Positions 22,876 to 39,263 of a stretch of 39,898 nt of DNA are shown here, piece after piece (within the stretch, counting starts at the first letter, position 1; the number at the start of each line of letters is the position of its first letter). The translations under genes were made by a program, and so were the position numbers. Origin of the DNA: Legionella genomosp. 1 (GTDB taxonomy: Bacteria; Pseudomonadota; Gammaproteobacteria; Legionellales; Legionellaceae). Below the pieces are notes generated by a model. That model made no database searches. It was not told where the DNA came from and saw only the letters and a program-made list of their open reading frames with translations. The stretch lies in the NCBI GenBank assembly GCA_945901965.1, contig CAMDMN010000001.1, positions 1 to 39,898 on the forward strand, written 5' to 3'.

Positions 22876-22878
22876 TAA

Positions 22879-24726: not shown

Positions 24727-24815
24727 AACTCATTATATTAATTTTAAAAATATCGAGAAATATCTGTGGGTGATTTCTTAAATTATCAACAATCACCTTT
24801 TAATTTAATCTTATT

Positions 24816-25709
24816 TTATAAATTTTTTACAATAAACGACGCTACTCTCGGAACAAAAACCCCGACTTTAGGTTGGTATGCATATTCCTCTTTAAATTCT
24901 ATAAGAGTAAACCCTGCCTGAGTAAGTTGATCAATTACCTCCCGACAATCACGATATAAAAAAATATGATCGGCATGTGGTGCTGTTAAGGCTGCAGTAA
25001 TAAAGGCAACACCATTTTTTTGAAGCATACCACGCAAAGCACTCAAAAAACTTATTGGATCGTCTAAATGCTCTAAAACTTCTACTGATATTAGAAATGG
25101 GAACTTCTCCATTATTTTATTTTCAAGGATATTAAGTTTATTTATACTCCATCTTTCACTAACACCAAAAGCATTAACATGTCTACGAGAAAACTCAATA
25201 GATGCGTCACTTATATCAAAAGCATTAATCCTCAATTGAGGAATATCAGTAAGGCTTATACGACTATAAAATCCAGTACCAACTCCAACATCATACATGT
25301 GTTTCTCATCACTAAGAGCAACCAAAGGCAAAAATTTCTCTCTGAAATAATGTGACTGCCTATAGTGATGTGGCCAAAGATAATGACTTAACATTAGACC
25401 TGGAAGATATTGTGAAAGCATATAATCTTTATTATGATAAACCTCAGCAACTGCATCATCATATTTTTTATATATATATATCCCATCTTTTTCAAACTTG
25501 TTTTGTAGCCGTAAAGTGTCCATTACAAATTGGACATATCCCTTAACTGCATTTTCTATACCTGCATCTGTATAAAACACCTGCAACATTTCTTCAAACT
25601 CATTCGTCCAAATATTTCCATTTTGCATTTTATTTCTTAAAACAACATCTTTCATAAAAGGTGCTGTTTTTTTCATCGTAGCATCTAGAAATGTAATAAG
25701 AGATTCCAT
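24816..25709 (-). CDS. Class I SAM-dependent methyltransferase with a ~130-aa N-terminal extension
   Basis: 297 aa. SAM motif I is YDVGVGTGFYS, followed by downstream FDISDASIE and ISVEVLEHLDDP. It lies immediately downstream of the ACP gene. Confidence 0.8.
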   Translation of the reverse strand: MESLITFLDATMKKTAPFMKDVVLRNKMQNGNIWTNEFEEMLQVFYTDAGIENAVKGYVQFVMDTLRLQNKFEKDGIYIYKKYDDAVAEVYHNKDYMLSQYLPGLMLSHYLWPHHYRQSHYFREKFLPLVALSDEKHMYDVGVGTGFYSRISLTDIPQLRINAFDISDASIEFSRRHVNAFGVSERWSINKLNILENKIMEKFPFLISVEVLEHLDDPISFLSALRGMLQKNGVAFITAALTAPHADHIFLYRDCREVIDQLTQAGFTLIEFKEEYAYQPKVGVFVPRVASFIVKNL

Positions 25710-25970
25710 TTAAGCATCCTGAAATGTTAAATCTAAAGCATCACACACCGTCATACATACCAACTGGAAGCTTCTCATTTCTAAAACCTGACTATCAGAA
25801 AACGTAACATTAAACTCTTCTTCCAATGATACAATTAAATTCATCTGCCCAATAGAATCCCATGACTGAATTGTTTCAGGAGAGGATAAAGGAGTTATTT
25901 CATTTAAATCAATCTCAAAAAGCCTCGAGATAATCTTTTTCACACAATCTTCTACTTGTTGCTTAATCAT
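25710..25970 (-). CDS. Acyl carrier protein (stand-alone)
   Basis: About 86 aa from ATG 25970, which forms an ATGATTAA overlap with the upstream stop. The phosphopantetheine-site context is QSWDSIGQMNLIVSLEEEF (a DS-L/I type motif). Confidence 0.8.
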   Translation of the reverse strand: MIKQQVEDCVKKIISRLFEIDLNEITPLSSPETIQSWDSIGQMNLIVSLEEEFNVTFSDSQVLEMRSFQLVCMTVCDALDLTFQDA

Positions 25971-27705
25971 AAATAAATTCCTTATTAACGTAATCACAAA
26001 AATTTGGTAATTTTAAATTTAAATCATAAGAATACTTTTTAACCCCATTATCAGTAATTAATAGGATAAAACCTAACTGTTCATATAGATTAGATACCGG
26101 AATATTCTTTACCGTTGGAATATATTCTCCATAGAGTATTTTTATACCTGATTTTTTTAGGTCACTAATAACTGACTCAAAAAAAGCAAATTCAATTTTT
26201 CTCCCCATAACTCGACAACTTAACAAAAATGTATCAATACTTGCGGATAACCCATTACTGTCAAATTTAATAATTAACAAACCAACCGTTCCGGCGTCTC
26301 CAAATCGATCAGATACATCTATTGCATAAACCCGACAATACTCTGAAGCAATAAATTTGCGCATTTCTGTTTCGGAGTAACGATAAGTTGTTAAGTTAAA
26401 CTGATTGGTTTTCTGTGTTAATTGAGAAAGACGAGCGACTTTAAAGAGAGGATCTATTCTTATAGATAATGATAGCTGCAAATAACGAAGATAATCATCC
26501 AAACTTTCAAATTCATTTTTTATTCTCATACGCTCATCTTCCAATTGATACATTTTTAATCTTTGCGCATCCTCTAGAGTTTGAACTAAGCCAAAAAAAC
26601 TATTAGCTAGTTTTCTTATAATTGCTGGATATTCATATAAATTACGTGGAACTTGAACTACATCGACCTCTGGAAGCATCTTTCTAATTAAATTAACTTC
26701 AAAATCACTATCATCAACAAATACAATACTATCTAAACCAATATTTAGGGTATTAGCCATATTGATTATATTTATATGTTTTTCCTCCCAATTAACCTTG
26801 CGAATACAAAGATCATTCTCACTTAGTCTCATAGTTTTATCTATTAAAAACAGTTCTTTGACATCTTCATCATTATTTTTACTACAAATTCCAACTAACA
26901 CTCCTCTTTTAATTAGAGCAGCAATAATTGTTTGAACATCTCGATATGGATAACCAATTGGAGTCTCATATTTTTCCAAAATACCTTCTACCCCATCTTC
27001 ACCAACAACTCCTGGCCAAAGTGTATTATCACAATCTAAAATTAGCATTTTTTTAATTTTTCCACGAAGAAATATCAATGGATGCTTAATTTGAGAAGTA
27101 AACACTTTCATCATATTAAGGGTATACAAAGCTTTATGTATGTAATAATTTTGTGGGCTTATTGCGCTGGATACTCCTATGCTTCCAATAATTCTATCTA
27201 TATTTACAATTTGTACATTTTTTCCAATACAAGATTCGAGTATAGAATTCATCGAGTCTACAATCAGATCAAAATTATCTGGTTGTACTTGATTATAGTT
27301 GAATGCCAAAGAAGAAAATCGGTTAAAAAGTACCAAAGGTACATTTTCTAAAATACGGAACAATAATTGTAGCTCAAGCTTACATTTATTCAAAAGCTCA
27401 TCTATTTCTTTATTTGATAAAAGATTAGCCATGTAACTTAGGCTAGGAATATAATTTGCTGCCTCCCAAAAAATAATAACAGCATCACTATCAGAGTATT
27501 TTTCTGCATCTTGAAGAATATTATCATAATCACCAATAATAACATCCGCTTTTATTCCCTCTATTCCTAATTGATATTCCAAAAGATCCTTTATTAAGTT
27601 AACAGTAATATTTGTAAGGACGACAATACGAAAAGGCAAACCACACAATTTTTTCTTCATTTCTCTATTTTGGATTACAATTTCAGAAAAAGATACTTCA
27701 CTCAT
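25963..27705 (-). CDS. FkbH-like HAD-IIIC phosphatase/acyl-loader with C-terminal GNAT-like domain
   Basis: 580 aa. HAD motif I plus the FkbH signature appear as LILDCDNTLWPGVVGEDGVEGI, together with GICSKNNDEDV. The C-terminal ~150 aa (FGDAGTVGLLI...LLSCRVMGRKIEFAFF) are acyltransferase-like, as in the FkbH-domain family. Confidence 0.8.
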   Translation of the reverse strand: MSEVSFSEIVIQNREMKKKLCGLPFRIVVLTNITVNLIKDLLEYQLGIEGIKADVIIGDYDNILQDAEKYSDSDAVIIFWEAANYIPSLSYMANLLSNKEIDELLNKCKLELQLLFRILENVPLVLFNRFSSLAFNYNQVQPDNFDLIVDSMNSILESCIGKNVQIVNIDRIIGSIGVSSAISPQNYYIHKALYTLNMMKVFTSQIKHPLIFLRGKIKKMLILDCDNTLWPGVVGEDGVEGILEKYETPIGYPYRDVQTIIAALIKRGVLVGICSKNNDEDVKELFLIDKTMRLSENDLCIRKVNWEEKHINIINMANTLNIGLDSIVFVDDSDFEVNLIRKMLPEVDVVQVPRNLYEYPAIIRKLANSFFGLVQTLEDAQRLKMYQLEDERMRIKNEFESLDDYLRYLQLSLSIRIDPLFKVARLSQLTQKTNQFNLTTYRYSETEMRKFIASEYCRVYAIDVSDRFGDAGTVGLLIIKFDSNGLSASIDTFLLSCRVMGRKIEFAFFESVISDLKKSGIKILYGEYIPTVKNIPVSNLYEQLGFILLITDNGVKKYSYDLNLKLPNFCDYVNKEFIYD

Positions 27706-28892
27706 ACCATAACTCCCCCGCCATTTACCCGCAAAGTCTCACCCGTAATAAAGTCAGAGTCAGAGCTCATTAAATAGGAAACCGCAGATGCTACATCACT
27801 AGGTTTACCCATACATTTTAATGGGGTTGAACTCTCTATTAATAAACGATTTTTCAATGGAATATCAGCGACTAAATTTGTATCGATCATACTTGGAGAA
27901 ACAAGATTAATTCTTACTCCATATGGAGCAATTTCAACAGCAACTGACTTAACATACCCTACTAGAGCAGACTTTGCGGCGATATAATGAGCCCATTTAG
28001 CCACAGGTTGATCTACAGCTTGTGTTGAAAGAACAACTATTTTCCCATATTTTTCATCAATAAACTTGGGAATGATATTGCTACTTATATTATAAAATCC
28101 CTTCAAATTAACTTCAATTTGGTCATTGATGTCATGCCATCTAAGCACACTAGAATTTAATGATGGAAGTTTAGGAGTAGGGCAAAACACAAACCCAATA
28201 ATATTTGGCATCCTTTTATTTACTTGCAAAATCATTTCTCTTACCGAATCTTCATTTGTTACATCAGCTTGAAATAAAAATACTTGGCTGGAATCAGATG
28301 CAATTTCAGAACGAAGTTTATGAGCCTGATCAGCATTTTTATTATAATGCACAGCAATATCAAAACCATCACCTGAGAGCCTTCTACAAATTTCTCTCCC
28401 TATCCCTCCAGTAGCACCTACTACAAGAACTGCTGGCTTTTTCTGTTTTTTACCAAGATCTACAGAATTTTTCTCAAGATCTTGTTCTTCAATCACCTTT
28501 ACTTTTGCATGACCACTGGTCAATAATTCATTGTGTTGATTAAATATGTTGGTTGTTAATTCAATTACTTCATCACGTAAATACTTTTTAATTACTTCTG
28601 CGCGAACTCTAAGAATATCACCAACTCGAGCTGGCTTTAAAAAATTTAATTGCTGTGACATCCAAAGAGAACCATCTCCAGGGAGCTTCGTACCAATTAT
28701 TGTAGAAATAAAAGAAGCACCTAACATTCCATGTGCTACAGGCATTTTAAAATATGTACGTGAAGCATACAACTTATCAACATGCAGACGATTGTCATCA
28801 CCCGTCAAAGTAACAAACCTCGAAATATCTTCATCAGTAATTTTATGACAGACCTCAGCAAAATCACCAACTTTAATTTCTGAAAATTTCAT
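27702..28892 (-). CDS. Bifunctional MaoC-like (R)-hydratase/dehydratase + short-chain dehydrogenase/ketoreductase fusion
   Basis: 396 aa. The N-terminal hot-dog domain carries the hydratase motif LTGDDNRLHVD. The C-terminal SDR has VVGATGGIGREI (TGxxxGIG) and YIAAKSAL (YxxxK). Confidence 0.85.
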   Translation of the reverse strand: MKFSEIKVGDFAEVCHKITDEDISRFVTLTGDDNRLHVDKLYASRTYFKMPVAHGMLGASFISTIIGTKLPGDGSLWMSQQLNFLKPARVGDILRVRAEVIKKYLRDEVIELTTNIFNQHNELLTSGHAKVKVIEEQDLEKNSVDLGKKQKKPAVLVVGATGGIGREICRRLSGDGFDIAVHYNKNADQAHKLRSEIASDSSQVFLFQADVTNEDSVREMILQVNKRMPNIIGFVFCPTPKLPSLNSSVLRWHDINDQIEVNLKGFYNISSNIIPKFIDEKYGKIVVLSTQAVDQPVAKWAHYIAAKSALVGYVKSVAVEIAPYGVRINLVSPSMIDTNLVADIPLKNRLLIESSTPLKCMGKPSDVASAVSYLMSSDSDFITGETLRVNGGGVMV

Positions 28893-28897
28893 TATCC

Positions 28898-29464
28898 TTA
28901 CAATTCCTTTTTCTGTAAACGTGACTTGACAACCCTACCAGGATTCCCCACTACAATTGAATAAGGAGGAATAGGACCACTCACTACTGATCCAGCTCCA
29001 ATCACTGACCCTGTACCAATATGTGCACCAGAAAGCAAAATGGCATTTGGGGCAATCCACACATGATCTTCAATTACAATACTATATAATTTATTATTAA
29101 AAATAATGGTTTTAAAATCATGTCCTTGTTCTATAAAAGGAAGATTTAAGTCATCAAAACGATGGTTAGCCGTTCTAACCCAAGCCCCTCGCGAAACCCA
29201 AACATGATTACCAATCCAAATCGGATAAGAATCTCCTGCAGCAATACTTGCAGATTCTCCTATCATAAAATTATCACCAACATTAATCATATTTTTAATC
29301 CCAATACTGGATCCACGCTCAAAAATAGCTTGTTTACCAATACGATCTTTCAATATATATTCCCAATATTTTCTCCGAAGCCATCTTCCTAATTGGGTTT
29401 CAGGATAATAAATAATAATAAAACTAATCCACTGCTTAATCTCAATAATGAATAATTTAAACAT
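28898..29464 (-). CDS. Hexapeptide-repeat (LbH) acyl/acetyltransferase
   Basis: 188 aa with hexapeptide repeats ending IAPNAILLSGAHIGTGSVIGAGSVVSGPIPPYSIVVGNPGRVV. It has a hydrophobic N-terminus. Confidence 0.8.
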   Translation of the reverse strand: MFKLFIIEIKQWISFIIIYYPETQLGRWLRRKYWEYILKDRIGKQAIFERGSSIGIKNMINVGDNFMIGESASIAAGDSYPIWIGNHVWVSRGAWVRTANHRFDDLNLPFIEQGHDFKTIIFNNKLYSIVIEDHVWIAPNAILLSGAHIGTGSVIGAGSVVSGPIPPYSIVVGNPGRVVKSRLQKKEL

Positions 29465-29606: not shown

Positions 29607-30233
29607 TTAATTAAAAATTATTTCCTCATTTGATTTTATCAATTTATTTTTTAAAACTTCAACACCAAACCTGTCAGACAAATTATGCAATATAAACTGG
29701 TGTCCAACTTCAACATAACCATAATCATAAGAGTCTAACCAAAAATTAAAATGTCCAATCTCCCTTAAAGAATTATTATTATCAAAGCCAGTAAAAGTAA
29801 CAACATTAACACCTCGTTCTATCGCTACTTCTACAGCATTACATATATTTTTAGATTTTCCGGAGCTACTAATTGCAATTAGCATATCACCTGATTTAAT
29901 AAATTGTGATAATACTCTAGAGTATGCATTCTCATAACCAAAATCATTTGCCATACAAGTAATCAGCGATGATTCGTGTAATACTTGCGCATTGATCTTT
30001 GCAACATTAACAAAATCAACTTGGGCATGACTTGCAACGGCCGCACTACCACCATTGCCAATAATATAAAGCGACTGTTTGTCTTGACGAATCTTTCGTA
30101 GATTGTCCAATACTTGTAACATTGCTAATTCAAGATTAACTATGTTCATTTCTTCATTTGTACAAACTGTATTGGTGATAATCTGAGCGAATTCAGTAGC
30201 GCGATGGTTAAGTTGCATTTTATTTAATTCCAT
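29607..30233 (-). CDS. SIS-domain sugar-phosphate isomerase, GmhA/DiaA-like
   Basis: 208 aa. IIGNGGSAAVASH and GDMLIAISSSGKSKNI match the phosphoheptose-isomerase-type SIS motifs. Confidence 0.8.
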   Translation of the reverse strand: MELNKMQLNHRATEFAQIITNTVCTNEEMNIVNLELAMLQVLDNLRKIRQDKQSLYIIGNGGSAAVASHAQVDFVNVAKINAQVLHESSLITCMANDFGYENAYSRVLSQFIKSGDMLIAISSSGKSKNICNAVEVAIERGVNVVTFTGFDNNNSLREIGHFNFWLDSYDYGYVEVGHQFILHNLSDRFGVEVLKNKLIKSNEEIIFN

Positions 30234-31162
30234 ATTAATTCTCCATTTTCTTTTATTTTTTCAAAATTTTTTATTACCATTAAACCCATTGCTTCAATAG
30301 CCTCTGAAGTACTACCACCTATGTGACTTGTTGCAAAAAAATTATCTAATGCAAGTAATTTTTCAGACACTTTCGGCTCTTCCTCAAATACATCTAAAGC
30401 TGCTGCTAAATATTTGCTTTTTAATACCTGATACAACGCCACTTCATCAACTAACCCCCCTCGAGCGGTATTAATTAGAATTGCCCCTTTTTTCATTGCG
30501 TTTAATTCATCAAACCCAATAAAATGATGGTTTTCTGGAAGTAATGGAATATGGAGTGAGATTATATCTGACTGTTCTAACAGTGTGTTAAGCTTCACCT
30601 GCTTTACATGTGTCATTAAATTATCATGGGTTTGAATATCATAAATTAAACATTTACAACCGAACCCTTGGAGTAATAAAGCCAAATCTTGGCCAACAGC
30701 ACCAAACCCAATAATACCAACAGTCTTATTTGAAAGTTGACTTCCAGTAGGTTGCTGCCATTGTCCTTTCTTAATCTTTTCATAAACTATATGTAAATGA
30801 CGCTGTATTGTAAAAATTAGACCTAAGACTAATTCTGATACTGAACGCTTATTCAATCCAGGAGTAGCTGCAAAACCTATACCACGACGCTCCAAAGCGT
30901 TAAGGTCAATCTTGTCTATACCAGTACCCATTTTACAAATTACTTTCAAATCTGGTAAATAGTCAAGAAGTTTATCATCAATGACTTCTAAGCCAATAAT
31001 TGCATGTGTCGCTCCATGCAAAAATTTAATTAATGCTTCATCAGCCAACTTAATTCCAGCATCATTAAATTTTACATTAGTAAATTTCTCTCGCAATCTT
31101 TGACGAAGGATATTATTTTTTGAAAATGAACGAGATGTAACTGCAACTAATTGTTTATTCAC
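30224..31162 (-). CDS. D-isomer-specific 2-hydroxyacid dehydrogenase (SerA/PdxB-like), NAD-binding
   Basis: 312 aa. Motifs are the NAD motif GIIGFGAVGQDLA, NTARGGLVDE, LDVFEEEP and TSHIGGST. It has a GTG start. Confidence 0.85.
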   Translation of the reverse strand: MNKQLVAVTSRSFSKNNILRQRLREKFTNVKFNDAGIKLADEALIKFLHGATHAIIGLEVIDDKLLDYLPDLKVICKMGTGIDKIDLNALERRGIGFAATPGLNKRSVSELVLGLIFTIQRHLHIVYEKIKKGQWQQPTGSQLSNKTVGIIGFGAVGQDLALLLQGFGCKCLIYDIQTHDNLMTHVKQVKLNTLLEQSDIISLHIPLLPENHHFIGFDELNAMKKGAILINTARGGLVDEVALYQVLKSKYLAAALDVFEEEPKVSEKLLALDNFFATSHIGGSTSEAIEAMGLMVIKNFEKIKENGELIWN

Positions 31163-31176: not shown

Positions 31177-31932
31177 TTATTCATGCTCAAAAAAATTACT
31201 TATTTTCTCAATGTGAGAACCTGCAGAAGCATAATCAATATACCAAGATATATCTCTACTTGGTTTAAGTAGTTGAATAGGATATTCAAACTCACCTAAA
31301 TTACTAAATACAGATTTAACCACATGAGCTTTAGATTCACCTGCAACAAGAACGGCTACTAATATTGCAGAATTTATTGCTTGCAAAGTTAAACTAATAC
31401 GACGCGATTGTAAATGTTTAACATCGATATTTACGACTATATTATTAGAATTTAATGACTCCTTATCGTCAGGAAATAATGAGGCAATATGACCGTCTAC
31501 TCCAACCCCCAATAACACAAAATCAAATTGTGGAAGGCCTTTTTCATTTTTAGGTAAATTTGAATTTAGCTTATTTTCATAAAGAATAGCTGATTCATGC
31601 GGAGTAATATCTTCCGTTTTTATACGATGGATATTTGCAACATTAAGTGAGACGTGACTCAGAAATCGAGAACTAATCATATTAAAGTTATTATCTATAT
31701 GAGATTCTGGCACAAATCGTTCGTCAGTTTGATAAATATGTACAAATTGCCAATCGATTTGATCAACATAAGGTTTGTTAGCTAAAAGAGAATAAAATAA
31801 CTGTGGCGTGTTTCCTCCAGATAGAGCAACATGAAAACTACCAGAATTACTAATATTAAATTTTGCCTGATTAACAAATTGTTGTGCAAGCATATGACTA
31901 AGTTGCTCTAAATTTTTTTTAACATATTGCAT
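31177..31932 (-). CDS. 6-phosphogluconolactonase-family protein (Pgl/DevB/NagB fold)
   Basis: 251 aa. ALSGGNTPQLFY, YQTDERFVP and LLGVGVDGHIASLFP match Pgl signatures. Confidence 0.8.
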   Translation of the reverse strand: MQYVKKNLEQLSHMLAQQFVNQAKFNISNSGSFHVALSGGNTPQLFYSLLANKPYVDQIDWQFVHIYQTDERFVPESHIDNNFNMISSRFLSHVSLNVANIHRIKTEDITPHESAILYENKLNSNLPKNEKGLPQFDFVLLGVGVDGHIASLFPDDKESLNSNNIVVNIDVKHLQSRRISLTLQAINSAILVAVLVAGESKAHVVKSVFSNLGEFEYPIQLLKPSRDISWYIDYASAGSHIEKISNFFEHE

Positions 31933-31975: not shown

Positions 31976-33115
31976 CTAAACCAACATATTAGATTTGGTA
32001 AAAGCAATTTTTTCTTGAGATTTAATAGCCCTCCCACTTAATAAATAAAGTCGACATAGATCTTTAAATAGCTGATCATTAGCAATATTTGCTTTAGAAA
32101 TTAAGCTATGTTGATTAAGTAAAATTAAACTCAACACATCATTACCTGTATTTTTTTTATCCTTAGAGATTGCTCGTAGGAATGCATCTAACGGAATAAA
32201 TTCCTGAGCATAATCAATATAATTTTGGGCTAATACTGCATGCATTCTAATATAATGTTCAGATGTTGTTAAATTAGTTTCCATAGCAATATAATTCGCC
32301 ATATCCATACCAATCGTTACTGCAATTCCATGAGGAATCTTATACTCTGTGGCTGACTCAATTGCATGACCAAAGCTATGGCCATAATTCATCACCTGCC
32401 GTATATCTCTATCAAATTCATCTTGTTCTATAATCTCTTTCTTAATTTCTAATGACCGACGAATATAATACGTCATCAATTCATTATTTTCGAAAAGACC
32501 ATCATAATCTTTTGATATTTGATTAAATGATTTCTCGCCGTCAATTGCATGTACCTTTAACATTTCACCAATTCCAGATCTAATAGCCTGAATATCTAAT
32601 GTCTTGAGAAATTCTAAATAAATAAAAATCTGCTTGGGTGGAGTAAAAGTTCCCAATATATTTTTAGCATCCCCACAATTTATAGAACTTTTAGAACCGA
32701 TGCAAGAATCTGCCTGAGCAAGAAGTGTAGTCGGGACAAAATACCATTCTACCCCGCGCAACATATTAGCAGCTAAAAAACAGGTAATATCTTGAATAAT
32801 ACCACCGCCAATCGCGATTAATTGCTGATTGCGCCGAAGCTTATTTTTTACTAAATGTTCAACATAAGCTGGCATTTTCTCTAGAGATTTATTTTTTTCA
32901 TCCGCTTCAATTGTTAAAACAGATATGGCAGATGTCAATATCTCTTTAAGTTGGTCGTGATAAAGAGTAAATATATTTTTATCTATTATGATATGGCTTT
33001 GATGAATGATTTCCTTATCAAGTTGAAATTTATTTCCCTCCATAAAACTTACACTATACCTTCCCTTATGAGATTGAACTTCAAATGAATAATTAGACAC
33101 GGGTAAATCCTCCAT
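31976..33115 (-). CDS. 3-dehydroquinate synthase-family sugar-phosphate cyclase (divergent AroB paralog)
   Basis: GGGIIQDITCFLAANMLRGVEWYFVPTTLLAQADSCIGSKSSIN, AKNILG, SGIGEMLK, RQVMNYGHSFGHAIE, HGIAV and SKDKK align motif by motif with AroB. The start is ambiguous between GTG 33136 and ATG 33115, and both overlap the upstream SDR stop. Confidence 0.85.
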   Translation of the reverse strand: MEDLPVSNYSFEVQSHKGRYSVSFMEGNKFQLDKEIIHQSHIIIDKNIFTLYHDQLKEILTSAISVLTIEADEKNKSLEKMPAYVEHLVKNKLRRNQQLIAIGGGIIQDITCFLAANMLRGVEWYFVPTTLLAQADSCIGSKSSINCGDAKNILGTFTPPKQIFIYLEFLKTLDIQAIRSGIGEMLKVHAIDGEKSFNQISKDYDGLFENNELMTYYIRRSLEIKKEIIEQDEFDRDIRQVMNYGHSFGHAIESATEYKIPHGIAVTIGMDMANYIAMETNLTTSEHYIRMHAVLAQNYIDYAQEFIPLDAFLRAISKDKKNTGNDVLSLILLNQHSLISKANIANDQLFKDLCRLYLLSGRAIKSQEKIAFTKSNMLV

Positions 33116-33812
33116 CAACAGCAATATTTTGCCCACTTAAATAAGTATTTTCTTCACTCACTAACCATAAAACAAATCTAGCAATCTCATCAGGCTGACC
33201 TAATCTACCAATTGGAATTTGCTGCACGATTTCAAGTATTTTATCTTCGCCTAAAATCTGTTTGGTCAAGTCAGTTTCAATAAATCCAGGCGCTACACAA
33301 TTAGCTAAAATTCCATATGAAGCTACTTCAGCAGCCAATGCAGCTGTCATACCATCTAACGCAAATTTACTAGCAGAATAAGGTGCACGCCAAGATTTAC
33401 TCACTTTACCTAAAACAGAACTCAAGTTTACTATTCTTCCCCATGCCTTTTTACGCATCCCAGGAATCACTGATCTACACAAAATAAATGGAGCGTTAAG
33501 ATTTACTCGTTGTATATTATTAAAATTTTCTAAGGTTGTGTTTTGAAAGGGAGCTATAATATTAATTCCTGCGTTGTTAATCAAAATATCTGGTTCTAAT
33601 TCAGCAAGTATTTCCGCAAATTTCTCCGTGCTTTTTTCACACAGAAAATTAACCGAATAATATTGAAAATCATCAGAAATTGTAGTCTTTTCACTTGTTC
33701 CAGTAATTAACACTTGTGCGCCAGCAAATTTAAGTTGCTGAGCTATAGCAAGCCCAATTCCTCTATTAGCTCCCGTTACAACAGCCATTTTACCATTTAA
33801 CTCAATTGTCAT
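33093..33812 (-). CDS. Short-chain dehydrogenase/reductase (FabG-like)
   Basis: 239 aa with VVTGANRGIGLAIA, NNAGI and YSASKFAL (YxxxK). Confidence 0.9.
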   Translation of the reverse strand: MTIELNGKMAVVTGANRGIGLAIAQQLKFAGAQVLITGTSEKTTISDDFQYYSVNFLCEKSTEKFAEILAELEPDILINNAGINIIAPFQNTTLENFNNIQRVNLNAPFILCRSVIPGMRKKAWGRIVNLSSVLGKVSKSWRAPYSASKFALDGMTAALAAEVASYGILANCVAPGFIETDLTKQILGEDKILEIVQQIPIGRLGQPDEIARFVLWLVSEENTYLSGQNIAVDGGFTRV

Positions 33813-33845: not shown

Positions 33846-34916
33846 TCAGTCAATAAGTTCAAAATTTAATTTTTTGCTTTTAGATTTAGCTTTTAAAGAC
33901 CAACGGTCACTCCATGCTAGATCTGCATAGTATATTTGATACACAAGCGACATAGTATTATAAGCATCTTCTAAAGTGCCATGCTTGATCTCAGCTTTAC
34001 CTAAAATTGCATCAGCAAATTCTGCAATTTCATATTTCCAAGAATTATCTTCATTATAACGAGTAGTTTGTTCTTTAGGGTCACCACAGTCGTCTTGGGT
34101 TGCCCAAGCGATAGTCATTTTTTCAGAGCCATAACTTTTTGAACCTGAAAGAATTCCACTTAGAGTAATAGCCCCCTTTTCTAAACTAATATCTAACTGA
34201 AATTGATGACGCCATTGAGTTGCTGAAGAATGCAACATCGCCACAATTTTATTTTTAGTACGCATCAGTGCATATGCATTATCTTCAACATCATGTTTCC
34301 AAAAATCATTCGAAATAAAACTATGAACTTCACTAAACTCTCCACCAAATAAGCGTAAGAGATCAACCATATGAATTCCTTGATCAAGCAATATTCCTCC
34401 ACCTGCTATAGCACGCTGACTTCGCCAATCAGAATTTTGACCAAAATTAATTATTTTTGATTTACCATACACCCCACGCAAATTAATTACATCACCTAAT
34501 TCCTTGGAATTAATTATACTTAGAGCCGCTGAAACGGAATCATGATATCGATGATTAAATCCATATTTTAACTTAAGATGTGGATGTTTTTTCTTACAGG
34601 CGACTACCAGATCCATATCAGATAAATCACGTCCAGGTGGCTTTTCACAAAAAACATGCAACCCTCTTTCTAACCCCGCAACAGTAACTTCTGCAGCAAT
34701 ATCATTTGTCAAACACACGAAAAGAATATCTAAATCTTGAGCCAGCAACTCTTTATAATTAGAAAAATAAGGGACACCGCTATCCATTTTACCACTGCTC
34801 ATAAAATGTCGGTCACAAATAGCAACTACTTTTAAATTAGCATGCAAATCGATATGAAAATGACGACGCTTTCCAACAACACCATACCCTGCAATACCAA
34901 CCCTTAATTTTTCCAT
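33846..34916 (-). CDS. Gfo/Idh/MocA-family NAD(P)-dependent sugar oxidoreductase
   Basis: 356 aa with N-terminal VGIAGYGVVGKRRH, the EKP motif VFCEKPPG and GFNHRYH. It is the first gene of the long minus-strand operon as currently arranged. Confidence 0.9.
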   Translation of the reverse strand: MEKLRVGIAGYGVVGKRRHFHIDLHANLKVVAICDRHFMSSGKMDSGVPYFSNYKELLAQDLDILFVCLTNDIAAEVTVAGLERGLHVFCEKPPGRDLSDMDLVVACKKKHPHLKLKYGFNHRYHDSVSAALSIINSKELGDVINLRGVYGKSKIINFGQNSDWRSQRAIAGGGILLDQGIHMVDLLRLFGGEFSEVHSFISNDFWKHDVEDNAYALMRTKNKIVAMLHSSATQWRHQFQLDISLEKGAITLSGILSGSKSYGSEKMTIAWATQDDCGDPKEQTTRYNEDNSWKYEIAEFADAILGKAEIKHGTLEDAYNTMSLVYQIYYADLAWSDRWSLKAKSKSKKLNFELID

Positions 34917-34966
34917 AAAACATCCTAATTTATAAAAAATACAGTTATTTTTTTAGTAAGCCCTAA

Positions 34967-35117
34967 ACAATAAATATTGGTGCATATGCCCTTCAACTTT
35001 TTCAATGTCATTTGGACTATCAACAGAAAATGAATGTCGATAAGGATATGGCGCTATGGGCTGTTTTAATCCATGATCCATTATACAATTACTGTCACAA
35101 CGTTCTTTTAATTCTAA
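34967..35117 (+). pseudogene. IS3-family transposase (OrfB) C-terminal remnant, part 1 (interrupted by IS5-like insertion)
   Basis: The plus-strand frame reads ...MNVDKDMALWAVLIHDPLYNYCHNVLLIL. It continues in frame with 36289-36437 once the IS and one CTAA copy are removed. It is 5'-truncated near 34960. Confidence 0.6.
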
Positions 35118-35259
35118 CACCTCGTTACTAATTTGTAACGGATAAATTTTTCATTTTTAAGCTTTCTATTTTTTTATCGGATATACCAGAGTCAACTTTT
35201 TAGCTCATTAATTTTTTTGACTGTTGTCACAAAATTAGATCATCTAACGCATCCTGTAA

Positions 35260-36177
35260 CAACGCCCCCCTTGGCTAACTATTTGTGCCAATTTATCAAT
35301 GAGGCATGTGGTGTTGTAGGTGGATATGGCGGTTTACAAAAGCGCCTTATAATTAATAAGGGTATAAACCATCAGCTTCATCCCGAAATGCTGTGTGCTT
35401 GATCCACAAAAATAGTCGCTTGAATTCGTCATCCAAGGAGAACACGCGCACTATTGTTCTTAACTGATCTTCGAATATGGCCTTATCAAAAAACCGGTTT
35501 CTGCCTCGCTTTTTAGCATTTCTATTACTCTTGTTTTCATTGATATTTGGCGCCATACCCACATTGAAAATCATTTTTTCTATTTTTTTAGAGTCATATG
35601 CCCCATCCAGACTTATAAATGAACGTAAAACATCCATACTAACGGCTTTTGCAATATCTTTAAGTTTGTTAAATGCGCCTGGAAATAGTTTGGTCTCATT
35701 CGCATTGTCAGGTCCGGTAACAATGGGGGCAACGACATTACAGTTCCTATCACACAACGCGACTATTTTATCTCCTGTCAGATGATTGTGGTCGCTTTTG
35801 CCAATATTATCGCAACTTTTTTTGCAGAGGTTATTGTGCTGTTCCCGTGAAGAACGCTGGTGTCTAAAAGAGACTCCCTCTCTAACTTTGCAACCGATGA
35901 TTCAAAAACTCGGTCAAAAAACCGCTGTTAACCCAGTTTTGGAAGTGTCTAAATAATCGAGAGTAACTTATCTCGGTCCTTCAAAATGGATCTTTATCTA
36001 TAGTGAGTTTATACCACTGGCATCCCGCGCGCATTAAGATCAAAAAATAATCAAGCATCTTAAAATATGAGATTTTTGGTTGTGGTCCTTGGCAACCTCC
36101 CTTTATGTGCGCAAAAACAAATTAATTAAAGCCAGACTAGGATAATTCAGTGGGTTCCAGCTGTAGCACGTCTTCAT
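35260..36177 (-). pseudogene. IS4/IS5-type DDE transposase, multiply frameshifted and stop-interrupted
   Basis: Minus-strand fragments appear in three frames: LDEDVLQLEPTEL, GGCQGPQPKISYFKMLDYFLILMRAGCQWYKL, the 134-aa ORF 35353-35757 (DGAYDSKK...NRNAKKRGRNRFFDKAIFEDQLRTIVRVF...FKRL) and a YKALL tail. The order matches IS5-family transposases. Confidence 0.7.
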
Positions 36178-36191
36178 CCAGGAGATTCCCC

Positions 36192-36284
36192 AATTTCTAT
36201 TAATTGTGTACCGCGAGCATGATACACCAGAAAACCCTTACCTACACTGAATTTAAAGGAAATTAGAAACTAGCAACGAGGTGA
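36192..36284. repeat. 93-bp IS5-like transposase-proximal end, copy 1
   Basis: My ungapped alignment to 39517-39609 gives 82/93 identical positions. Both copies end in ...AGAAACTAGCAA[C/G]GAGGTGA. Confidence 0.88.
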
Positions 36285-36288
36285 CTAA

Positions 36289-36437
36289 AAGTTGAATTAA
36301 TTCATGAATGTGCTTATAAAACACCTGAGCAAGCAAGTCTTAGCATATTTCAATACCTGGAAGTATATTATAATAATAATTGAATGCATTCAGCTATTGA
36401 CTATAATACTATATTTGAGTTCAAATGTGCTGGGTGA
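36289..36437 (+). pseudogene. IS3-family transposase (OrfB) C-terminal remnant, part 2
   Basis: The frame reads (K)VELIHECAYKTPEQASLSIFQYLEVYYNNN*MHSAIDYNTIFEFKCAG*. This matches the IS3-family tail pattern Y-x-T-x-E-x-A-x-x-x-I-F-x-Y-I-E-x-x-Y-N-x-x-R-x-H-S-x-x-x-Y-x-x-P-x-x-F-E. There is one internal TGA where Arg is expected. Confidence 0.7.
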
Positions 36438-36692
36438 TTGTCAAAGATCGGTATCCACTAAAACACGTAAGATTATCATGATACACCAGAATCTGCAGCT
36501 CGAAATGTTACGAATATTTGGTAAGGTTTAAGTCTCAGTATTGTAATTTATCAGATGAATTACTTGGCCGAGTTGAATCCACGTTAAGTGATGTCGTTTC
36601 TGAAAGAAAGTACAAGATGAAACTTTCATTAACTTATTGATGCTGATTAAGTTAAATTAAATATAAGTTATGATTTTTATGGAGAGATTGGC

Positions 36693-37691
36693 ATGAGAGA
36701 AGTGGACATTAGACCAGAAAATATTTTTAGTGAATACTTACGCTTAACTCAAATAGATGCGGAGACATTTTTCACAAACTCAGAATGTGTTGATATAGAT
36801 TGTCCAGCTTGCGCTGCCCTTGATAAAAAGTACGCTTTCACGAAACAAGGGTTTGATTATCAAGTCTGTCAAAACTGTGAAACACTGTATCAATCACCAC
36901 GCCCTCTTAAAGTTTTATTTGATAATTTTTATTTTGACTCACCATCATCAACTTTCTGGGGAGAGCAATTTTTTCCTGCTGTTTCTGAAATTAGACGTGA
37001 AAAAATATTTAAGCCTCGATGTGAAGCAATCATCAATAAATGCCAAAAATGGGATTTTGAGCCAAAAACAGTAATAGATGTAGGTGCTGGATTTGGTGTT
37101 CTTCTCGAAGAAATGCAAAAACTGGCTCCAACTGCAGAGTATTTGGCTATCGAGCCCGGACATATTTTATCCAAAGTGTGCATGGATAAAGGCTTCGATA
37201 CACTTATATCAACAGTTGAGGAAGCTCATGAATGGCATGACAAAGCTGACTTACTTACATGTTTTGAAGTAATTGAACATACCTATAACCCATTAGAGTT
37301 TGTCGCGGCTTTAAAAAACATCCTGAAGCCAGGTAAAAAAGTATTAGTGACCGGCTTGTGTGGTGATGGATTTGATATAAAAATATTATGGGAACATTCA
37401 AAAAATATTTCACCCCCTCATCACATAAATTTTATGTCGGTAGAAGGATTTAAATTACTTTTTGAAAGAGCAGGATTTGTTAATGTTAGTGTTGAAACGC
37501 CTGGAAAATTAGATGTGGATATAGTTCTTAACGCATTGAATGATGAGAGTATAAGAAAAAATCTAAACTTAAGTAGACTTGAATCTCATTTGGTAGCGCA
37601 ATTCAAGGATAATCCACATACGTTACAACAATTTCTTGCTGACAACCAATTGAGTTCACATTGCTGGATCTGGGCTGAGAGACCATTGTAA
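36693..37691 (+). CDS. Class I SAM-dependent methyltransferase with N-terminal Cys4 zinc-ribbon
   Basis: 332 aa. The zinc-ribbon cysteines are CPACAAL...CQNCETLY, SAM motif I is VIDVGAGFGVLLEEM, and CFEVIEHTYNP follows. A GGAGAG Shine-Dalgarno lies about 8 nt upstream of the ATG. Confidence 0.8.
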   Translation: MREVDIRPENIFSEYLRLTQIDAETFFTNSECVDIDCPACAALDKKYAFTKQGFDYQVCQNCETLYQSPRPLKVLFDNFYFDSPSSTFWGEQFFPAVSEIRREKIFKPRCEAIINKCQKWDFEPKTVIDVGAGFGVLLEEMQKLAPTAEYLAIEPGHILSKVCMDKGFDTLISTVEEAHEWHDKADLLTCFEVIEHTYNPLEFVAALKNILKPGKKVLVTGLCGDGFDIKILWEHSKNISPPHHINFMSVEGFKLLFERAGFVNVSVETPGKLDVDIVLNALNDESIRKNLNLSRLESHLVAQFKDNPHTLQQFLADNQLSSHCWIWAERPL

Positions 37692-37713: not shown

Positions 37714-38487
37714 ATGAGACAATTTACCCTAAAACAAAAACTACAAACTGGGAAATTAACCTTAGGGGCTTGGATAACATTGGGACATACTGCCATTGCG
37801 GAAATTTTTGCTCAGGCAGGTTTCGATTGGGTGGTTGTTGACCTTGAGCACAGTACTATCTCTATCGAGAAAGCAGGTGATTTGATCAGAGTCATTGACC
37901 TTGCGGGTGTTCCTGCATTAGTGCGGCTGACATCAAACGATGATTGTCTCATCAAACGAGTGATGGATGCTGGTGCCTATGGTATTGTGGTGCCGATGAT
38001 CAACTCATCTGAGGAAGCTGTTAAAGCAGTAATGGCAACACGTTACGCTCCTCACGGAACGCGTGGTGTTGGATTGGCACGAGCACAAGGATATGGACGA
38101 AATTTTAAAGATTACCTTGAGTGGCAGGAAGATTGCCCACTGGTTATTGTGCAGATAGAGCATGTTAGTGCTCTTAATAATTTAGAAGCAATATTTAGCG
38201 TTGATGGTGTTGATGGGTTTATTATTGGACCATATGATTTGTCCTGCTCTATGGGGATACCTGGTCAATTTGATCACCCTGATTTTATAAGTGCTATGGA
38301 GTCCATTAAAACCACGGGAGAACGAATGGGGTGTCCTGCTGGTATTCACATTGTGGAACCAAGTCCACAGCAGTTAGAACAAAATATTGCTGCAGGGTAT
38401 CAATTTATCGCATATAGCGTTGATATTCGTATGCTAGATGTTAGCGCGCTTAATGGTATTAGTGTGTTTAAGGAGCTTAATAAATGA
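37714..38487 (+). CDS. HpcH/HpaI-family class II (metal-dependent, pyruvate-specific) aldolase
   Basis: 257 aa. AGFDWVVVDLEHS, VRL, RVMDAGAYGIVVPMINSSEEA, YAPHGTRG, VQIEHVSALNNLEAI, VDGFIIGPYDLSCSMG and HPDF parallel the HpcH/GarL/RhmA family. Confidence 0.88.
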   Translation: MRQFTLKQKLQTGKLTLGAWITLGHTAIAEIFAQAGFDWVVVDLEHSTISIEKAGDLIRVIDLAGVPALVRLTSNDDCLIKRVMDAGAYGIVVPMINSSEEAVKAVMATRYAPHGTRGVGLARAQGYGRNFKDYLEWQEDCPLVIVQIEHVSALNNLEAIFSVDGVDGFIIGPYDLSCSMGIPGQFDHPDFISAMESIKTTGERMGCPAGIHIVEPSPQQLEQNIAAGYQFIAYSVDIRMLDVSALNGISVFKELNK

Positions 38488-39263
38488 ATGTCCTTGGTAT
38501 TATTCCAGCGCGTCTTGCCGCGAGCAGGTTTCCAAATAAACCTTTAGCAAAATTACTTAACATGCCTATGATTGGTCATTGTTACCATCGAACATGTTTG
38601 GCTCTTGGAGCTGAGAGAACTTATGTGGCAACATGTGATGATGCTATTGCCGAGTATGTTCATTCTATTGGCGGCAAGGTTGTGATGACTTCAATTGAGC
38701 ATAGTCGCGCTACAACGCGTACTGCTGAAGCGTTAGAAATAATAGAGAAAAAGACAGGTAATAAATCAGATGTAATCGTTATGGTTCAAGGTGATGAGCC
38801 ACTTATTCCCCCTCAGACTATTGCGGACACACTATTACATTTCAATGATCTTTCGTTGGATGTTGTAAATGTGATGTCAAAATTAAAAACATTGGATAAA
38901 TTTATAGACAAAAACAATGTTAAAGTTGTGGTAGATCGGAATAGCAATGCATTGTATTTTTCTAGAGAACCTATTCCATCCTTATGGAAAGGATGGGAGC
39001 ATATCCCTCGTTACATGCAAACTGGTATTATTGCTTTTCGCCGCAATATGTTATTGCATTTTAATAGTATGCCTGAAACCGAACTTGAGCAAATTGAATC
39101 AGTCGACATGAATAGGTTGCTTGAAACAGGAAGTAAGATTCGTATGGTATTAACAGAGGCAGTAACCATTGGTGTAGATACGCCAGACGAGTTGAAAGAA
39201 GCTGAGCAGTTGTTGCAAGATGATTTGTTTATTAGCCGCTATCTTGAAATGCACAGACAGTAA
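38484..39263 (+). CDS. KdsB-family cytidylyltransferase (CMP-3-deoxy-ulosonate synthetase paralog)
   Basis: 259 aa. GIIPARLAASRFPNKPLAKLLNMPMIGH, YVATCDDAI, GGKVVMTS, HSRATTRTAEA and VQGDEPLIPP match KdsB motif by motif. An ATGA overlap links it to the aldolase gene. Confidence 0.85.
   Translation: MNVLGIIPARLAASRFPNKPLAKLLNMPMIGHCYHRTCLALGAERTYVATCDDAIAEYVHSIGGKVVMTSIEHSRATTRTAEALEIIEKKTGNKSDVIVMVQGDEPLIPPQTIADTLLHFNDLSLDVVNVMSKLKTLDKFIDKNNVKVVVDRNSNALYFSREPIPSLWKGWEHIPRYMQTGIIAFRRNMLLHFNSMPETELEQIESVDMNRLLETGSKIRMVLTEAVTIGVDTPDELKEAEQLLQDDLFISRYLEMHRQ

Follow-up and report, generated by a model that had tools for sequence, protein, structure and literature searches.

By sequence, the AroB-like ORF of Legionella genomosp. 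1 described here is a member of an already named, uncharacterised protein family, TIGR04425, and the enzyme that it encodes probably acts on a phosphorylated seven-carbon sugar acid. The gene lies in a stretch of 39,898 nucleotides (the window), within a gene cassette (Table 1) that we found in surface-glycan loci of many phyla. The explanation that we consider best, and hold tentatively, is that the protein is a paralogue of dehydroquinate synthase (DHQS) with a dedicated role, which would need NAD+ and a divalent metal and would not be an enzyme of the shikimate pathway. Judging by its active site, it very probably carries out the same oxidation, phosphate-elimination and reduction chemistry as DHQS.

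Table 1. Features of the cassette region in the window, with the match on which each assignment is based.
Feature	Position	Strand	Match
SIS-domain sugar-phosphate isomerase, GmhA-like	29607..30233	minus	Pfam SIS_2; NCBIfam gmhA 1.9e-21, below cut-off
D-isomer 2-hydroxyacid dehydrogenase	30224..31162	minus	Pfam 2-Hacid_dh_C 1.3e-53
6-phosphogluconolactonase (Pgl)	31177..31932	minus	TIGR01198 pgl 183 bits vs cut-off 124
AroB-like sugar-acid phosphate phospho-lyase (predicted)	31976..33115	minus	TIGR04425 member, 379 aa
Classical SDR	33093..33812	minus	Pfam adh_short_C2 1.1e-49
GFO/IDH/MocA oxidoreductase (GFO)	33846..34916	minus	Pfam GFO_IDH_MocA and C-terminal domains
IS5-family transposase fragment	35353..35757	minus	tblastn ~51% identity, E 1e-32 to 1e-33; no Pfam match
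SAM-dependent methyltransferase	36693..37691	plus	Pfam Methyltransf_23 3e-20
HpcH/HpaI class II pyruvate aldolase	37714..38487	plus	Pfam HpcH_HpaI 1.4e-35
KdsB-type CMP-ulosonic-acid cytidylyltransferase	38484..39263	plus	NF009905 277 vs cut-off 255; NF003952 255 vs cut-off 193

The reading frame runs from an ATG at 33115 to a stop at 31976, and a longer form starting from a GTG at 33136 is possible. The protein matched the Pfam domains DHQ_synthase (7.7e-34) and DHQS_C (1.8e-34). The TIGR04425 model aligned with it end to end (residues 13-358 on model positions 1-345 of 348) and scored 470.3 bits, above the cut-off of 400, whereas the aroB model TIGR01357 gave 273 bits, below its equivalog cut-off of 305. 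In NCBIfam the family is a hypothetical equivalog named [quoted passage not shown]. This name is already in use for RefSeq homologues, many other sources label the homologues "3-dehydroquinate synthase", and a cluster look-up of ten of them returned generic names only. There is no sequence-level difference between the ORF and the family. Literature searches with the family name or its accession brought up no paper on the family or the cassette, nor did searches that combined the name of the enzyme with cytidylyltransferase, HpcH or KdsB, with O-antigen, or with carbocyclic or heptulosonic. On plasmids, tblastn retrieved no annotated homologue. Bradyrhizose, a carbocyclic O-antigen sugar, was dropped as a lead, the one relevant paper making no mention of dehydroquinate.

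To compare active sites, 28 curated sequences of sugar-phosphate cyclases, covering DHQS, aminoDHQS, EEVS, EVS, DDGS and DOIS, were obtained from the source data of an eLife 2015 article (PMC4426668) and aligned with the ORF (MAFFT L-INS-i); positions follow the Aspergillus nidulans DHQS numbering unless they are those of the ORF. All 13 active-site residues of the A. nidulans enzyme are kept in the ORF (ORF = A. nidulans: R120 = R130, D136 = D146, K142 = K152, N152 = N162, E184 = E194, K187 = K197, K225 = K250, R239 = R264, N243 = N268, H246 = H271, H250 = H275, H262 = H287 and K320 = K356). The Arg, Lys, Asn, Glu and His residues that the first-pass annotation had matched by eye are thus the DHQS set, and the spacing K-x13-R-x3-N-x2-H-x3-H that it had claimed is exact. 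Independently of MAFFT, HMMER pairwise alignments to the H. pylori and S. aureus DHQS gave an identical register. The 13 residues are also kept in 120/120 of the closest homologues; with an overall identity to DHQS of 27-30%, this points to selective conservation and not to chance.

Compared with DHQS (AroB, EC 4.2.3.4; 1DQS, 1XAG, 3CLH, 5HVN), with which the ORF has the fold and the NAD and metal sites in common, the family differs by its own clade, by a glycan operon in place of a shikimate context, and by only five family-specific substitutions among the 120 homologues: G122C, G151S, A193G, V254I and E260D. Two of these adjoin K152 and E194, suggesting that the ligand is of DAHP size but slightly different. 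The motif HGIAV, which the first-pass annotation had set against HGEAV of AroB, is indeed present; it is not diagnostic, as genuine DHQS also vary at this position (H, M, F, A, D).

The EEVS, DDGS and DOIS enzymes (ValA 4P53, Ava_3858 5TPR, BtrC 2D2X) belong to the same superfamily and share with the ORF the fold, the metal ligands, K152, N162 and R130. However, in these enzymes K250 has given way to M, N268 to D, A or E, H275 to P and R264 to G or D, and K356 has changed as well; in the ORF all five are conserved. In the alignment, EEVS presented M250, D268 and P275, with 264 and 356 variable; DDGS presented M250, D264, A268 and P275, with 356 variable; and DOIS presented G264, E268 and N356. 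The remark of the first-pass annotation that several residues are replaced in these cyclases was correct (250/264/268/275/356 in EEVS and DDGS, 264/268/356 in DOIS), and so was the statement that the ORF follows the DHQS pattern, since neither it nor any of the 120 homologues departs from DHQS at these positions. The EEVS/DDGS fingerprint (M at 250, D or A at 268, P at 275) is replaced in the ORF by K, N and H, and that of DOIS (G264/E268/N356) by R, N and K. The R197 of the aminoDHQ synthases (RifG/Asm47), seen in the aminoDHQS of our alignment, is likewise absent, with K in the ORF and in the whole TIGR04425 set. An AHBA-like pathway, by analogy with RifL/RifK/RifM/RifG, was rejected for want of this K197R signature; in addition, the conserved neighbours include no recognisable aminoDAHP synthase or DHQ dehydratase.

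A different situation is presented by EVS (2-epi-valiolone synthase; Amir_2000, Staur_3140), another DHQS-like enzyme that has been taken into service in a pathway other than that of shikimate. The three EVS sequences keep 12/13 of the residues, the sole difference being K356R. EVS is reported (Asamizu et al. 2012) to act on the neutral sedoheptulose-7-P (S7P) and yet keeps K250, R264, N268 and H275, so that the residue pattern alone is not decisive for an acid substrate. It could consequently be proposed that the enzyme is a cyclase of this type, in which the Lys and Arg would be ancestral leftovers and from which a C7 cyclitol, a valiolone isomer, would reach the glycan. Against this proposal, the ORF and its family have K at position 356, as DHQS does, and all three EVS have R.

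In the phylogenetic analysis, the protein and 19 homologues formed a clade with 100% bootstrap on a long branch, with identities of 55-72% inside the clade versus 20-30% to any other group. DHQS alone was its sister in 114/200 replicates (57%), which also speaks against the EVS type. The clade fell inside DOIS in 0/200 replicates and inside EEVS/DDGS in 3/200; its position within the most recent common ancestor of EVS, in 32/200, favours the neutral-substrate proposal, the support of the EVS clade itself being only 37%. EVS grouped with EEVS/DDGS, while TIGR04425 grouped mostly with DHQS. The phylogenetic check that had been suggested thus placed the ORF outside the EEVS/DDGS and DOIS clades and not as a tight orthologue of housekeeping AroB, and the divergence from AroB noted at first sight holds in identity, in the aroB score and in the separate clade. 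The AF2 model (pLDDT 88.9) retrieved in Foldseek DHQS structures as all of its top 22 PDB matches, with TM values of 0.77-0.81 to the DHQS fold, and sequence searches of the PDB gave E-values of 1e-47 for DHQS versus 1e-20 to 1e-28 for EEVS/DDGS/DOIS.

The full DHQS active site, these best PDB matches in sequence and structure, and the wide annotation of homologues as "3-dehydroquinate synthase" are also what would be expected from an ordinary DHQS, either the housekeeping AroB or an aromatic/shikimate isozyme, located by chance in a glycan locus. We regard this as highly improbable, because the protein falls short of the aroB cut-off but passes that of TIGR04425, has the same low identity to DHQS of any lineage on a long separate branch, and is encoded in a context of SDR, GFO and 2-hydroxyacid dehydrogenase genes across 79 loci, in none of which aroK lies next to it.

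These 79 genome loci, from many phyla, were the sample for the analysis of the neighbourhood; presence was counted on the 55 loci of at least 16 kb, and adjacency on 74. The cassette occurs in Pseudomonadota, Elusimicrobiota, Acidobacteriota, Actinomycetota and candidate phyla including candidate division WWE3, and the neighbours in the window and in the 79 loci bear out the glycan operon setting first read from the window. The order of the core is fixed: GFO, SDR, AroB-like gene and SerA-like 2-hydroxyacid dehydrogenase. GFO is the most conserved partner of the cassette (50/55 loci, median identity 63%). An SDR homologue was present in 55/55 loci and directly upstream of the AroB-like gene in 55/74; the 2-hydroxyacid dehydrogenase was present in 48/55 and directly downstream in 43/74. 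A KdsB-type cytidylyltransferase was detected by tblastn in 48/55 loci, typically immediately upstream of the GFO gene, and a methyltransferase homologue in 21/55, mostly between the cytidylyltransferase and GFO genes. Optional members are an aminotransferase and a second GFO, which occur as a pair, and TIGR04326 "surface carbohydrate biosynthesis" proteins lie alongside the cassette in 29/79 loci, although none was found in the window. No phosphatase was found among the core genes of the surveyed loci, which fits the removal of phosphate by the lyase.

The HpcH aldolase and the GmhA-like SIS isomerase were found in 26/55 and 28/55 loci, respectively. Both were present in 8 loci versus 8.1 expected, that is, they are statistically independent. 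The idea that they are alternative entry points was rejected, as no anti-correlation was observed; each occurring in about half of the loci, neither of the feeder routes proposed below would be universal.

In the window, the 3' end of the SDR gene shares 23 nt with the start of the AroB-like gene, an overlap that makes translational coupling of the two genes probable, and the cassette is split by a 1.8-kb gap in which the IS5 fragment lies. The best PDB relatives of the GFO are inositol 2-dehydrogenase, glucoside 3-dehydrogenases, glucose-fructose oxidoreductase and aldose-aldose oxidoreductase, which oxidise C1 or ring hydroxyls. The 2-hydroxyacid dehydrogenase is nearest to phosphoglycerate dehydrogenase (SerA) and PdxB; its best NCBIfam and PDB matches are PGDH, and one PDB relative is a 2-ketogluconate reductase. 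All top PDB matches of the SIS isomerase are phosphoheptose isomerases, of the type that isomerises S7P. The aldolase matched the NCBIfam models for HpaI, GarL and 2-keto-3-deoxy-L-rhamnonate aldolase, all below cut-off; class II pyruvate aldolases of the HpcH/HpaI type make or cleave 4-hydroxy-2-keto acids. Both models for which the cytidylyltransferase exceeds the cut-off are named "3-deoxy-manno-octulosonate cytidylyltransferase".

The SerA/PdxB-like dehydrogenase, the KdsB-type enzyme and the HpcH/HpaI aldolase come from families concerned with 2-keto or 2-hydroxy acids, and hence the context supports an acid substrate. The first-pass annotation had argued for a ulosonic-acid phosphate from the residues; these by themselves do not decide against a neutral ketose phosphate, as EVS illustrates, but the claim remains plausible with the acid-handling neighbours in its favour. 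We consider it reasonably probable that the substrate is an acidic C7 phosphate. The neutral-cyclitol proposal draws support from the GmhA-like S7P isomerase, which roughly half of the loci encode, and from the inositol-dehydrogenase-like GFO and the optional aminotransferase and second GFO, which resemble aminocyclitol pathways. Nevertheless, it leaves the three acid-family partners without a role, the isomerase would draw S7P off instead of feeding the cyclase, and EVS genes sit in secondary-metabolite clusters while those of TIGR04425 sit in glycan loci. We therefore judge an EVS-type activity improbable.

The length of the substrate is another point to consider. The gene between those of the AroB-like protein and the SerA-like dehydrogenase encodes a true 6-phosphogluconolactonase, and among the relatives of the GFO and of the 2-hydroxyacid dehydrogenase there are glucose C1-oxidising enzymes and a 2-ketogluconate reductase, respectively. 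A six-carbon route could be drawn from these, in which 6-phosphogluconate formed by Pgl would be converted by the dehydrogenase to 2-keto-6-phosphogluconate, or KDPG would be supplied by HpcH, and the AroB-like enzyme, by eliminating the phosphate, would form either a carbocycle with five ring members or a 6-deoxy hexulosonic acid. However, the ORF and DHQS have the same set of ligand-binding residues, which would imply the same carboxylate-to-phosphate distance and a pyranose, i.e., seven carbons; furthermore, the isomerase is of the phosphoheptose type. The position of Pgl is unique to this window: elsewhere weak relatives (25-31%) were found near the cassette in 4/79 loci, never at this position, and it was rejected as a general member. 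A six-carbon substrate consequently appears quite improbable.

For the preferred dedicated DHQS paralogue, we propose that the enzyme would bind a seven-carbon 2-ulosonic acid 7-phosphate in its pyranose form. In ORF numbering, the C1 carboxylate would be held by K225 and R239, and the phosphate by K142, N152, N243, H250, K320 and R120' of the ORF; this division into carboxylate and phosphate binding we take to be that of the A. nidulans DHQS-carbaphosphonate structure (Carpenter et al. 1998). As in DHQS, NAD+ would oxidise the C5 hydroxyl, phosphate would be beta-eliminated from C7, and the hydride would be returned. The substrate may be DAHP or a stereoisomer of it, coming from primary metabolism or from the HpcH aldolase (pyruvate and erythrose-4-P). 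Alternatively, it may be C1-oxidised S7P: the GmhA-like isomerase would turn S7P into a heptose-7-P, the GFO, helped in this window by Pgl, would take it through the heptonolactone to heptonate-7-P, and the 2-hydroxyacid dehydrogenase would produce 2-keto-heptonate-7-P. Given an acidic C7 phosphate, cyclisation is the rather likely outcome, as in every characterised relative, and would yield a carbocyclic keto acid resembling dehydroquinate. Its ketone would then be reduced by the SDR, the product of the overlapping gene, and the final product would enter the O-antigen or capsule encoded by the window.

A carbocyclic product would leave the linked KdsB-type enzyme without an obvious role, because the KdsB family activates the anomeric hydroxyl of true ulosonic acids; the contacts that a paper on KdsB names for Kdo are limited to the C5-OH. 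This consideration leads to another possibility, in which the enzyme is a phospho-lyase that does not cyclise. After oxidation and phosphate elimination on a C7 ulosonate 7-phosphate, the hydride would go back to C7 or the SDR would intercept the intermediate, giving a keto-7-deoxy-hept-2-ulosonic acid, which the SDR and GFO would reduce or epimerise and the KdsB-like enzyme would convert to CMP-7-deoxy-heptulosonic acid, a new surface sugar of the Kdo type. Only this scheme gives all core genes, including the KdsB-type one, chemically ordinary roles, and it needs no phosphatase, of which the core has none. The TIGR04326 proteins in the neighbourhood are in line with it, and so is the presence of the cassette in genomes of Actinomycetota and of candidate division WWE3. 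In organisms of these kinds, Kdo-lipid A is expected to be absent, and their cytidylyltransferase must then serve an acid sugar specific to the cassette.

The overlapping AroB-like/SDR pair also mirrors the dehydratase/ketoreductase pairs of NDP-hexose metabolism (RmlB/RmlD, Gmd/Rmd). In both, transient NAD+ oxidation beside the arm carrying the leaving group would be followed by elimination and by reduction through a co-encoded SDR. This is a mechanistic analogy only, valid only if the AroB-like enzyme does not cyclise: the 4,6-dehydratases have an unrelated fold, lose water and not phosphate, and act on nucleotide-linked substrates. Moreover, all characterised members of the superfamily cyclise, every residue that DHQS uses is retained, and the enol-pyranose intermediate of DHQS is said, from the work of Bartlett and Knowles, to cyclise spontaneously. 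To our knowledge, no bacterial glycan contains 7-deoxy-heptulosonic acid; in the accessible papers none was found, which also counts against the scheme. We thus regard a lyase that does not cyclise as rather unlikely.

The cassette can also be compared with the Kdo activation module (KdsD/KpsF - KdsA - KdsC - KdsB/KpsU). In common with it, the cassette has a SIS isomerase, a C-C bond-forming enzyme yielding 2-keto-3-deoxy acids and a cytidylyltransferase of the KdsB subfamily. The differences are that the isomerase is GmhA-like instead of KpsF-like, that HpcH depends on pyruvate and KdsA on PEP, that there is no KdsC-type phosphatase, the AroB-like phospho-lyase being the sole phosphate-removing enzyme, and that there are three extra oxidoreductases. 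A somewhat speculative extension is that the TIGR04425 enzyme, together with the GFO, the SDR, the SerA-like dehydrogenase and the KdsB paralogue, could make a new class of CMP-activated C7 surface acid. This might be a 7-deoxy-hept-2-ulosonic acid, in which case the DHQS-fold enzyme would serve as a "4,6-dehydratase" that eliminates phosphate, or else the carba-analogue of some ulosonic acid, and the route could start from C1-oxidised S7P.

Sugar-phosphate cyclases with the DHQS fold are known from shikimate, antibiotic and sunscreen pathways; we know of none in the assembly of cell-surface glycans. Here, a single clade in which the DHQS pocket is fully conserved is tied to a cassette containing a cytidylyltransferase, in hundreds of genomes belonging to many phyla, and the label "3-dehydroquinate synthase" given to such genes in metagenomes is probably wrong. 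Identification of the product would add to bacterial surfaces either a carbocyclic acid or a C7 sugar that is new and Kdo-like, with a bearing on serotyping, on phage and immune recognition and on glyco-engineering, and it would show how much reuse the active site of DHQS allows while its residues stay the same.

The AroB-like ORF keeps the complete active-site set of dehydroquinate synthase (DHQS). It was aligned with 19 homologues (MAFFT L-INS-i) to the curated DHQS, aminoDHQS, EEVS, EVS, DDGS and DOIS sequences that Osborn et al. supplied as source data (eLife 2015, PMC4426668). In A. nidulans numbering it has R130, D146, K152, N162, E194, K197, K250, R264, N268, H271, H275, H287 and K356 (R120, D136, K142, N152, E184, K187, K225, R239, N243, H246, H250, H262 and K320 in the ORF itself). 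The register is the same in independent HMMER alignments to DHQS of H. pylori and S. aureus, and the motifs that the first-pass annotation had matched by eye to AroB were all correctly placed. In a second alignment all 13 positions were conserved in 120/120 of the closest database homologues; with an identity of the ORF to any DHQS of 27-30%, this conservation reflects selection and not chance. The claim that the ORF follows the DHQS pattern is therefore borne out, and the signatures of aminoDHQS (R197), EEVS (M250, D268 and P275, with 264 and 356 variable), DDGS (M250, D264, A268 and P275, with 356 variable) and DOIS (G264, E268 and N356) are excluded. The invariant residue of the family differs from the invariant residue of DHQS at only five positions (G122C, G151S, A193G, V254I and E260D), of which two flank K152 and the metal ligand E194; the family thus has in essence the DHQS pocket, which leaves space for a slightly different ligand. 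From the carbaphosphonate complex 1DQS, we take K250 and R264 to bind the carboxylate, and K152, N162, N268, H275, K356 and R130' the phosphate.

Both halves of the DHQS fold are matched in the ORF (Pfam DHQ_synthase, 7.7e-34; DHQS_C, 1.8e-34). By its sequence it is one more member of a family already catalogued as NCBIfam TIGR04425 (470 bits, cut-off 400), and it fails the aroB equivalog (273 bits, cut-off 305). The TIGR04425 name is already in use for some RefSeq homologues, and many of those from metagenomes bear the label 3-dehydroquinate synthase. The biochemistry of the family appears unstudied, since a literature search turned up no paper on it or on the gene cassette described below. 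Neighbour joining with 200 bootstraps united the ORF and its homologues in one clade, fully supported (100%) and set on a long branch; its sister was DHQS alone in 114/200 replicates, and it fell inside DOIS in 0/200 and inside EEVS/DDGS in only 3/200. The AlphaFold2 model predicted from the family alignment was confident (pLDDT 88.9, pTM 0.88), and its 22 best PDB matches were all DHQS, the first DOIS ranking 23 and ValA 35. As the first-pass annotation had held, the protein is thus neither of the EEVS/DOIS type nor a housekeeping AroB orthologue, but a divergent relative encoded in a glycan operon. The ORF shares all 13 residues with DHQS but differs from it by its low identity, separate clade and aroB score below the cut-off, which makes an ordinary DHQS very improbable.

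A genome scan with one genome per species gave 367 loci with relatives, of which the best 79 were used; their sources include Coxiellaceae and other Gammaproteobacteria, Rhodospirillales, Hyphomicrobiales, Desulfovibrionales, Elusimicrobiota, Acidobacteriota, Actinomycetota and candidate division WWE3. Every window protein was compared by tblastn with the 55 loci of at least 16 kb. Homologues were found of the SDR in 55/55 (median identity 55%), the GFO oxidoreductase in 50 (63%), the 2-hydroxyacid dehydrogenase in 48 (45%), the KdsB-like cytidylyltransferase in 48 (38%), the SIS isomerase in 28 (33%), the HpcH aldolase in 26 (46%) and the methyltransferase (MT) in 21 (41%), and no other window gene showed comparable linkage in this search. 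The usual order, on one strand, is [HpcH][KdsB-like][MT] GFO - SDR - AroB-like - 2-hydroxyacid dehydrogenase - [SIS], with the SDR immediately upstream of the AroB-like gene in 55/74 loci and the dehydrogenase immediately downstream in 43/74; HpcH and SIS are each found in roughly half of the loci, and the presence of one does not depend on that of the other. Near the cassette, some 15 loci present a HisC/CobD-like class I/II aminotransferase together with a second, inositol-dehydrogenase-like GFO, a pair that suggests amino derivatives of the cassette product in some lineages; a HisC-type instead of a DegT-type aminotransferase is unusual in a sugar pathway. Other optional additions are FkbM methyltransferases and a PseF-like cytidylyltransferase. 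Large proteins (500-630 aa) of the uncharacterised "surface carbohydrate biosynthesis" family TIGR04326 occur with the cassette in 29/79 loci, as candidate transferases using its product; none is encoded in the window. One metagenomic family member (JGI sample 3300072015, 60.5-kb contig) is a 580-aa fusion with a C-terminal HAD phosphatase domain. Its gene also comes after an SDR, in a neighbourhood different from the usual cassette, with NeuB, inositol-monophosphatase-like and PIG-L genes, four radical-SAM/B12 genes and an ABC exporter.

The window itself is a low-GC (26-36%) surface-polysaccharide locus, with glycosyltransferases encoded on the (-) strand between 5.1 and 34.9 kb. Its two flippase candidates may mean that it encodes two glycans or is mosaic. 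The GC minimum (25.8% at 6001-8000, 30-36% elsewhere) coincides with ORFs without a family match and a weak flippase match. Three further nucleotide-sugar modules are recognisable, and the decoration genes point to a glycan substituent of glyceryl or hydroxyacyl type that may be sulfated. These are followed on the (-) strand by the genes for the GmhA-like SIS isomerase, the SerA-like 2-hydroxyacid dehydrogenase, 6-phosphogluconolactonase (Pgl), the AroB-like protein, the SDR and the GFO/IDH/MocA oxidoreductase; the methyltransferase, HpcH/HpaI pyruvate aldolase and KdsB-subfamily cytidylyltransferase lie on the (+) strand, beyond a 1.8-kb gap (34917-36692) containing an IS5 fragment. This HpcH-MT-KdsB part is inverted with respect to the usual order; in other genomes its genes adjoin GFO-SDR-AroB-like and run in the same direction, and the inversion here suggests an IS-associated rearrangement. 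The first 23 nt of the AroB-like gene (33093-33115) are shared with the 3' end of the SDR gene, whose TAA (33095-33093) lies inside the AroB-like frame; an alternative in-frame GTG at 33100 would reduce the overlap to 8 nt, and with either start, translation of the two genes is probably coupled.

Features of the glycan locus around the AroB-like gene
Feature	Coordinates	Strand	Remarks
Membrane-sized ORF	6319-7506		no Pfam match
Flippase candidate	7678-8967	-	Wzx/Polysacc_synt type
Flippase candidate	13675-14931	-	Wzx/Polysacc_synt type
Membrane-sized ORF	16906-18132		no Pfam match
Membrane-sized ORF	21655-22875		no Pfam match
FnlA/FnlB/FnlC-like set	within 10380-16874 and 19042-23658	-	UDP-L-FucNAc type
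FdtA isomerase, hexapeptide acetyltransferase, DegT aminotransferase	same regions	-	3-acetamido-3,6-dideoxyhexose type
Nucleotidyltransferase, 4,6-dehydratase, weak FdtA-like protein (133 aa), DegT	same regions	-	
Decoration genes	23674-29464	-	sulfotransferase-like, methyltransferase, FkbH-domain (HAD-IIIC, glyceryl loading type), MaoC dehydratase-SDR fusion, hexapeptide acyltransferase
Pgl	31177-31932	-	TIGR01198, above cut-off; bona fide
AroB-like gene	ATG 33115, stop 31976	-	379 aa; start extended to GTG 33136 in the mechanical ORF list
IS5-family transposase fragment	35353-35757	-	~51% identity to annotated IS5 transposases, E ~1e-32; no Pfam match

The first-pass annotation had also argued from the residues for a ulosonic-acid phosphate substrate. 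Taken alone, they do not prove a carboxylate-bearing one, because EVS differs from the ORF solely in having R356 for K356 (12/13 residues kept) and reportedly acts on neutral sedoheptulose-7-P (S7P; Asamizu et al. 2012). The stronger argument for an acid is the company of the AroB-like gene, constantly associated with 2-keto- and 2-hydroxy-acid enzyme families: the SerA-like dehydrogenase is PGDH/PdxB-like, the KdsB-type cytidylyltransferase scores above its subfamily cut-off, and the HpcH aldolase belongs here too. We infer a seven-carbon 2-ulosonic acid 7-phosphate; an EVS-like cyclase of neutral S7P seems improbable, and a six-carbon substrate still more so.

With chemistry as in DHQS, bound NAD+ would oxidise C5, the C7 phosphate would be beta-eliminated and the hydride returned; the core cassette contains no phosphatase, which fits the AroB-like lyase as the phosphate-removing step. 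The substrate could be DAHP or one of its stereoisomers, drawn from primary metabolism or made by the HpcH aldolase (pyruvate plus tetrose-4-phosphate), or it could arise oxidatively from S7P. In the latter route the GmhA-like isomerase, whose top PDB matches are all phosphoheptose isomerases, would give heptose-7-P, the GFO enzyme, with glucose-fructose and aldose-aldose oxidoreductases among its relatives, would oxidise C1, a lactonase would open the lactone and the SerA-like dehydrogenase would yield the 2-keto acid. Both sources fit the gene content. In the window the oxidative route is favoured because a bona fide Pgl gene sits precisely at the junction of the AroB-like and 2-hydroxyacid dehydrogenase genes, where it splits the best-conserved gene pair of the cassette and hints at a phospho-aldonolactone intermediate. 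Among the best 79 of the 367 loci, Pgl was found at this junction in none and is not part of the cassette outside the window.

To our knowledge all characterised relatives cyclise, and since the ORF has all the DHQS catalytic residues, we tentatively adopt, at somewhat less than an even chance, a dehydroquinate-like keto-carbocyclic acid as the product, which the coupled SDR would then reduce. KdsB-type enzymes work by activating true ulosonic acids at their anomeric hydroxyl, and a carbocyclic product would leave this strongly linked enzyme without its ordinary role. Elimination without cyclisation would instead give a keto-7-deoxy-heptulosonic acid, to be reduced by the SDR and CMP-activated, a keto-deoxy product that only then would resemble that of NDP-hexose 4,6-dehydratases; this offers a sensible use for every core gene, but set against the cyclising relatives and the intact catalytic residues it is rather unlikely, though our main alternative. 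The ORF is thus a DHQS paralogue of a widespread kind that keeps its pocket unchanged and is firmly tied to a glycan cassette with a cytidylyltransferase; the substrate hypothesis that follows from this finding can be tested directly.
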